Below, in pieces: positions 17,025-17,067 of a stretch of 64,000 bases of DNA (the first letter of the stretch is position 1; the number at the start of each line of letters is the position of its first letter). The notes under the pieces were generated by a model. The model worked only from the letters and a program-made list of their open reading frames with translations, did not search any database and was not told the DNA's origin. The stretch is from a plasmid: NCBI RefSeq assembly GCF_053078305.1, contig NZ_CP166875.1, one strand, 5' to 3'. The position numbers and the translations under genes were made by a program.

Positions 17025-17067
17025 TCCTGCTACTGCTACTGCTACTGCTACTGCTACTGCTACTGCT
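17025..17067. repeat. Hexanucleotide microsatellite (CTGCTA)n, about 6-7 units
   Basis: cctgctactgctactgctactgctactgctactgctc read directly; present only upstream of repeat copy 2. Confidence 0.9.

Follow-up and report, generated by a model that had tools for sequence, protein, structure and literature searches.

A perfect tandem repeat of the six-base unit CTGCTA lies upstream of ssb on an IncF plasmid (NCBI RefSeq assembly GCF_053078305.1, contig NZ_CP166875.1; the whole 64,000-nucleotide stretch analysed is called the window). This raises the question of whether the length of the array matters to the genes and the promoter that surround it, or whether it is free to drift. Tandem Repeats Finder describes a (CTGCTA)6.8 array of period 6 (consensus CTGCTA, 100% matches, score 82), which on direct reading consists of six full units at 17027-17062 followed by CTGCT at 17063-17067. 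The initial annotation had recognized this array with a start at 17025; the true start is 17027, the two additional bases (tc) being a trivial discrepancy. The dimer CTGCTACTGCTA, searched with at most one mismatch, has 6 matches in the window, all within 17027-17068, as compared with 0.10 expected, and that number was reached in 0 of 100 shuffled sequences. Thus, the array is far beyond chance and occurs once in the window. Its proposed restriction to the repeat copy on the ssb side is therefore correct for the window and incorrect as a general statement, since the metagenome contigs L029, L072 and L083 carry two arrays each. On its 5' side, the array adjoins a compound triplet repeat that is itself length-variable in related sequences, with (ATG)1-2 and (TTG)0-4; ATGTTGTTGTTC, TTGTTGTTC, ATGTTC and ATGTTGTTGTTGTTGTTC are examples of the resulting flank haplotypes.

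The window covers the F-like leading region of an IncF conjugative plasmid (Table 1). Within it, the array is located between a gene for a SAM-dependent methyltransferase and a Frpo2-type single-strand promoter element preceding ssb. A 2-kb query around the array matches at least 5000 plasmid records, most of them typed as conjugative and most from E. coli, Klebsiella, Salmonella and Shigella. A nic-like sequence on the - strand, together with the orientation of traJ/FinP, identifies the - strand as the one that is transferred; it serves as template for the leading genes. Scans for promoters and terminators around the array returned nothing that involves it: no sigma-70-like promoter was detected in 16700-17800, and no terminator was called at the G+C-rich inverted repeat located just past the methyltransferase gene. 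No Rfam family lies over or near the array, a permissive threshold giving only the traJ 5' UTR/FinP, sok and a sub-threshold match to AS-pc01 ("antisense to pHK01_035"). The latter, at 14499-14599 on the - strand, between repeat copy 1 and the DUF3560 gene, scores 68.7 bits as compared with a gathering score of 79 (E=1.7e-10).

Table 1. Features of the window around the CTGCTA array and in the leading region.
Feature	Position	Strand	Basis or remark
Pyrimidine-rich stretches 5' of repeat copies 1, 2 and 3	13650-13756, 16990-17117, 22631-22732
Repeat copy 1	13737-14286	+	No CTGCTA array; 5' flank with (TTG)4 and a CT-rich tract
DUF3560 gene	14876-16237	+	Pfam
Class I SAM-dependent methyltransferase gene	16284-16847	+	Upstream neighbour of the array; Pfam MTS, Methyltransf_25; homologue annotation
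80-aa ORF reading the array as poly-leucine	16847-17089	+	PGAP "hypothetical protein"; labelled "inside ORF L7083" on pO157; probably not a gene
Inverted repeat GAAAGGGGCCGCGC-TCAC-GCGCCGCCCCTTTC	16919-16950	+	Read from the sequence; without T run
VNTR-37 forward primer site	16939-16965	+	2 mismatches to the pO157 version
Pyrimidine-rich low-complexity tract containing the array	16990-17089	+	70% C+T; percentile 99.85 of all 100-nt windows
Compound triplet repeat TG(ATG)2(TTG)2TTC	17010-17026	.	Flank haplotypes
(CTGCTA)6.8 perfect VNTR, orthologue of VNTR-37 / O157-37	17027-17067	.	TRF, reading, uniqueness scan, copy-number census, primer mapping
Repeat copy 2	17070-17620		Array directly 5'
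Lineage-specific 5' part of repeat copy 2	17070-17259	+	Common to the three copies of this plasmid; no homologue in F, pO157 and pSLT
Predicted conserved class-1 single-strand promoter element, Frpo2 / ssp1b type	17260-17693	-	DNA fold, identity to F copies, literature
ssb	17730-18251	+	Pfam SSB, E=3e-37
DUF905 gene	18303-18542	+	Pfam
ParB-like protein gene	18603-20561	+	Pfam
psiB (PsiB)	20613-21050	+	Pfam
psiA (PsiA)	21047-21766	+	Pfam
sok	22116-22287		Rfam
Repeat copy 3	22713-23263	+	No array; CT-rich 5' flank; downstream of psiB, psiA and hok/sok
DUF932 gene	24156-25058	+	Pfam
SLT transglycosylase gene	25356-25958	-	Pfam
Nic-like sequence AGTGTGTGGTGCTTT	25949-25963	-
traJ 5' UTR/FinP	26753-26862		Rfam
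TraU, TrbC and TraD genes	beyond DUF932	+	Pfam

Related plasmids vary in the length of the stretch that holds the array. The array was read directly in fifteen fetched PLSDB loci, three of which were included for a different right flank. Twelve of these (L001-L012), picked to span the length range and thus illustrating range rather than frequencies, contain 1, 3, 4, 5, 6, 7, 8, 9, 10, 11, 12 and 12 units; plasmids typed as conjugative among the PLSDB loci carry 1 to 12 units. Public metagenome contigs were also scanned with the exact 21-mer of the left flank, GTCATTTGTCTGTTACTGATG, which retrieved at least 120 stretches. Among the matches listed, 119 arrays have both flanks, with a median of 5 units (1 unit, 11 arrays; 2, 18; 3, 16; 4, 14; 5, 16; 6, 18; 7, 14; 8, 3; 9, 4; 10, 1; 11, 1; 12, 2; 13, 1). 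The sharp drop above 7 units in these listed arrays could reflect an upper constraint, a deletion bias or the limits of short-read assembly, as short-read assemblies may under-represent long arrays. Altogether, the number of units ranges from 1 to 13 among the 135 related sequences listed. In the same set, sequences having the exact flank haplotype of the window (n=34) contain 1-13 units and those having the second main haplotype (n=31) contain 1-11 units, smaller haplotypes varying too. Since unit number varies within single flanking haplotypes, slippage is recurrent and the variation does not reflect a split between old lineages. The locus is also widespread. Of 5426 complete E. coli genomes, 1595 have a matching place that by itself spans at least 80% of a 241-nt query around the array; 9692 of the 9790 matching places in this search are on plasmids, and plasmids of Klebsiella, Shigella and Salmonella match the array locus as well.

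Judged by its sequence and surroundings, the array is the orthologue of VNTR-37, also named O157-37, a known typing marker of the O157 plasmid. According to the papers that cite its original descriptions, VNTR-37 / O157-37 is a PulseNet MLVA locus of E. coli O157:H7 carried by pO157 (Keys et al. 2005, Hyytia-Trees et al. 2006, cited in PMC3321953, PMC3777172). It has a 6-bp unit, is described as "inside ORF L7083" and shows 3-17 repeats, with 11 alleles and a diversity index of 0.82 (PMC3321953). In serially passaged strains, two changes were recorded, one single-unit insertion and one multi-unit deletion, and the rate was 4.3x10^-5 per generation (PMC3777172). With these published data and the 1-13 units seen here, including within one flanking haplotype, the view of the initial annotation that the tract is slippage-prone is strongly supported. 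The initial annotation had also suggested that repeat number be compared across related plasmids; it is not invariant, and for some twenty years MLVA typing has made this very comparison, between plasmids and within populations, at this locus.

The correspondence with VNTR-37 was traced with the published primers (PMC3321953). On the pO157 record L138, both primers match without mismatch, at 1513-1539 and 1660-1696, and enclose ATGCTA followed by six CTGCTA units. The gene order of this record, DUF3560, methyltransferase, array, Frpo-type element and ssb, is that of the window. The window shares with the pO157 locus the CTGCTA unit, the forward primer site, a left flank that is 95.0% identical over 179 nt (16848-17026), the hypervariability of the copy number and the plasmid location between the methyltransferase gene and ssb. 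On the right side, the two differ. More than about 20 nt downstream of the array, the window has another variant of the right flank (CTCTGATTCTGAC... instead of CTCTGATTACTGTCTG...), and for this reason no site for the reverse primer was found in the window with up to 8 mismatches. Therefore, this plasmid would be scored as a null allele in the standard VNTR-37 assay. Also, the published marker is carried by pO157, whereas the array of the window is on an IncF plasmid with tra genes. The VNTR-37 locus is not specific to pO157 and could help to track IncF resistance plasmids. Conversely, alleles ascribed to pO157 might, in principle, stem from a different IncF plasmid with a matching right flank. 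While the array is already known as a typing marker, its wide distribution on IncF plasmids, its location beside the ssb single-strand promoter and a position in common with the Salmonella marker STTR10pl are new.

The best explanation, to which we assign a probability of about 85%, is that the array is a hypervariable microsatellite, neutral or nearly so in function, and represents the IncF locus VNTR-37 / O157-37, situated in a non-coding pyrimidine-rich spacer. Its length would change by slipped-strand mispairing of whole six-base units during replication. Six-base loops are poorly seen by E. coli MutS. Because the array lies outside the promoter hairpin and shows no predicted interaction with it, its length would drift freely. 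We infer neutrality from the tolerance of many lengths. If so, the array itself matters only as a typing marker, a use that it already has. It should be noted that the recurrence of different microsatellites at the equivalent position in other lineages counts against neutrality and could hint at selection for the tract.

The window contains three direct repeat copies of about 550 nt, 95-98% alike, the array being directly 5' of the middle one. Only 17260-17693 of the segment 17070-17693 is common to F, pO157 and pSLT. The first ~190 nt of each copy are G+C-rich with several small hairpins, and F, pO157 and pSLT have an unrelated segment there. A DNA fold of 16990-17730 predicts a long hairpin on the - strand, at about 17336-17693, with an energy of -194 kcal/mol (z = -9.0 versus shuffled sequences). 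Over 358 nt, this hairpin is 94.4% identical to the element directly upstream of F ssb (Frpo2), and it is 88.4% identical to the second F element (Frpo1). The F Frpo2 / ssp1b single-strand promoter reportedly goes back to Masai and Arai in 1997. In F, Frpo1 and Frpo2 drive early leading-gene expression from single-stranded DNA (Couturier 2023, PMC9849209); they are named class-1 single-strand promoters in PMC12672017 and ssp1 in a recent preprint (bioRxiv 10.64898/2026.01.09.698686). Homology to Frpo1 and Frpo2, a stable predicted hairpin on the transferred strand and a place upstream of leading-region genes thus identify the repeat beside the array as a predicted class-1 single-strand promoter element. 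The putative single-strand promoter of the initial annotation is in this respect borne out. As with F Frpo2 / ssp1b, the promoter type found here is upstream of ssb with its hairpin on the transferred strand; the difference is that the array is outside the promoter element. The absence of the CTGCTA array from the F plasmid (NC_002483.1) follows from the absence of the DUF3560-methyltransferase module, and the sequence to the left of F Frpo2 is similar to the left flank of copy 1 of the window. Three class-1 copies are present here as compared with two described for F, the extra one preceding the DUF3560-methyltransferase module. Recombination between copies 1 and 2 would yield the F arrangement and delete the CTGCTA array.

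Could the length of the array tune the ssb single-strand promoter, through hairpin formation or spacing, in the manner of a contingency-type expression switch? The array does adjoin the repeat with the Frpo2-type promoter and its repeat number is highly variable. However, 269 nt separate the end of the array from the base of the predicted hairpin, and transcription from the promoter proceeds away from the array. In minimum-energy models, which ignore SSB coating, the array is mostly unpaired on the - strand and 13 CTGCTA units alone are nearly unstructured (-4.8 kcal/mol); with 1, 6, 13 or 20 units, segment 17336-17693 has one and the same predicted structure, position by position, and the total energy, -225 kcal/mol, shifts by about 5 kcal/mol between 1 and 20 units. 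The array is thus no part of the class-1 promoter stem-loop and has no influence on its predicted fold, so that an effect of length changes on hairpin formation, as initially suggested, is not supported. An effect on promoter spacing fares no better. The intervening segment (17070-17260, ~190 nt) is lineage-specific and absent from F, pO157 and pSLT, and in many plasmids it is replaced by an unrelated sequence with the array kept. Moreover, a six-base unit cannot act between -35 and -10 boxes here because there are no such boxes near the array. Contingency loci of Haemophilus, Neisseria and Campylobacter resemble the present locus in being hypermutable perfect short tandem repeats near genes for interaction with a new host. 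Unlike them, the array of the window has a unit that gives no frameshift, is not located between promoter hexamers and has no gene whose expression is shown or predicted to depend on it; neither a shift of frame nor a shift of hexamer spacing can be expected from a 6-base unit with no promoter-like site in 16700-17800 and no conserved ORF. Tuning of ssb by array length is therefore very improbable.

A coding role is equally hard to sustain. The array could encode a poly-leucine membrane segment of variable length in a small protein translationally coupled to the methyltransferase gene, whose stop codon overlaps the ATG of the 80-aa ORF in the window (ATGA). The leucine frame, which was traced in 16 loci, is open in nearly all sequences; however, open hydrophobic frames are expected from a pyrimidine-rich tract anyway. 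Similarly, the common length changes are all multiples of 3, as they must be with units of 3 and 6 bases. Each of the other two repeat copies likewise ends in short hydrophobic ORFs, at the equivalent TGA. Against this, neither start nor stop is conserved across the loci traced: L003 and L006 have no start codon, L009, L011 and L012 have the N-terminal part in a different frame, and one haplotype has lost the stop. The frame-breaking differences of L004 may be sequencing errors. The amino-acid differences seen between haplotypes, synonymous differences being left out, are replacements, including R to M. An internal ATG ATG is not preceded by a Shine-Dalgarno sequence, a Pfam search of the ORF gave no match, and another, overlapping frame also carries a gene annotation. 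We consider this coding reading highly unlikely, and the poly-leucine ORF is probably not a gene. The "hypothetical protein" annotations that cross the array in thousands of records would then be spurious, propagated artefacts. In loci L002-L012, two overlapping "hypothetical protein" genes in different frames are annotated across the array, at 16847-17089 and 16999-17259. One GenBank record names one of the overlapping ORFs "transporter", and two RefSeq records use "pilus protein" or "pilus assembly protein".

The tract in which the array is embedded has a marked composition, C+T-rich on the + strand and thus purine-rich on the transferred strand. Just 5' of each of the three repeat copies, a 100-nt stretch contains 68-73% pyrimidine on the + strand; these stretches rank 1, 2 and 6 in the 64 kb, where 100-nt windows average 48% (sd 6.6%). 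The tract preceding copy 1 is at percentile 99.5 and that preceding copy 3 at percentile 99.9. In 153 Frpo-type copies from the fetched loci, the pyrimidine fraction peaks at 0.62-0.69 in bins 360 to 240 nt upstream of the equivalent of window position 17400. Other repeats occupy the CT-rich tract of other copies, (CTT)6.7-9.7 in ten cases and CTCTGA-type repeats in four, and the F tract contains an imperfect (TTCCTCTTC)5, also given as (CCTCTTCTT)5.2. In pSLT (record L137), a perfect (CCTGTT)10.2 is found at 3706-3766, just 5' of a Frpo-type element upstream of ssbB, the hairpin of which is 87% identical to that of the window. The Salmonella Typhimurium MLVA marker STTR10pl lies on pSLT between PSLT064 and ssbB (PMC6459517). 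It is, like the array of the window, a perfect pyrimidine-rich VNTR with a 6-base unit at the equivalent intergenic place, 5' of a Frpo-type element upstream of a plasmid ssb. The two differ by the unit, CCTGTT versus CTGCTA, and by the upstream gene, PSLT064; only the position is common. Thus, STTR10pl is an independent microsatellite birth in a homologous tract and not the array of the window. A single full-text search pairing both names found no paper linking VNTR-37 and STTR10pl.

These observations raise the possibility that the whole pyrimidine-rich tract, array included, has a composition-dependent role, array length then being under only weak selection. The tract could provide a structure-free purine-rich spacer on the transferred strand, keeping the promoter hairpins from mispairing with their neighbours, or a C-rich, G-poor region ending the transcripts of the upstream operon. 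The compositional ranks of the three stretches, the peak in the 153-copy average and the presence of other CT-rich repeats at the equivalent place in F, pSLT and other lineages are in favor of such a role. On the other hand, one-unit alleles are common and therefore the array itself can be dispensed with; being of common descent, the copies may simply have inherited their composition; and the CTGCTA unit contains no YC dinucleotide. The YC dinucleotide is the preferred Rho-binding element, and a Rho-utilisation role for the array itself was set aside on this ground. Overall, a composition-dependent role appears improbable, if slightly less so than the tuning of ssb or a coding function.

A related view, which we hold as doubtful yet less remote than the former, is that the place rather than the array would be special: a pyrimidine-rich tract precedes every class-1 promoter copy, and different microsatellites have grown in it independently in different lineages, such as (CTGCTA)n in VNTR-37, (CCTGTT)n in STTR10pl and (CTT/CCT)n in F-type plasmids. 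It may be speculated that complementary-strand synthesis in the recipient stalls in the tract before the structured promoter DNA, promoting slippage. In the recipient, this synthesis is reported to be discontinuous, to be capable of priming by ssp1/Frpo transcripts and to stall at the stem of ssp2, another single-strand promoter (bioRxiv 10.64898/2026.01.09.698686). The pO157 and pSLT markers also mutate in serial passage without conjugation (PMC3777172). Alternatively, there may be selection for a structure-free spacer of flexible length. If either version were true, the way in which conjugative DNA is established would have produced, as side effects, two markers in wide use for plasmid typing. 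The location of VNTR-37 and STTR10pl at the equivalent place beside the ssb promoter is in this sense a small lead on how conjugative DNA processing might shape repeat instability.

The window contains other tandem repeats and duplications. A perfect (AACAGCCGC)6.9 array is present at 58990-59051, in the C-terminal part of traD (57132-59330). In relatives, the span of a 281-nt query over this array differs by -45 to +90 bases, mostly by multiples of 9, as for an in-frame VNTR, a kind of repeat in common with the 9-bp traD VNTR of pSLT (PMC6459517). A perfect (CGGACAG)7 array at 43381-43429 lies in a rare insertion between traU and trbC, which is covered by only 24 PLSDB records, one of them 7 bases shorter. 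Its assignment to VNTR-36 (Vhec7), a 7-bp repeat of pO157, was rejected as neither primer matches. This array is followed by a 128-nt duplicate of the 3' end of traU (41497-41624 and 43416-43543, 95% identity). Finally, a perfect 29-nt direct duplication (TTTCCCGCCGCGCAGATCCGGTTTCCGGC x2) is found at 1615-1673, in a pyrimidine-rich stretch near an ORF of the integrase family (2308-3243).
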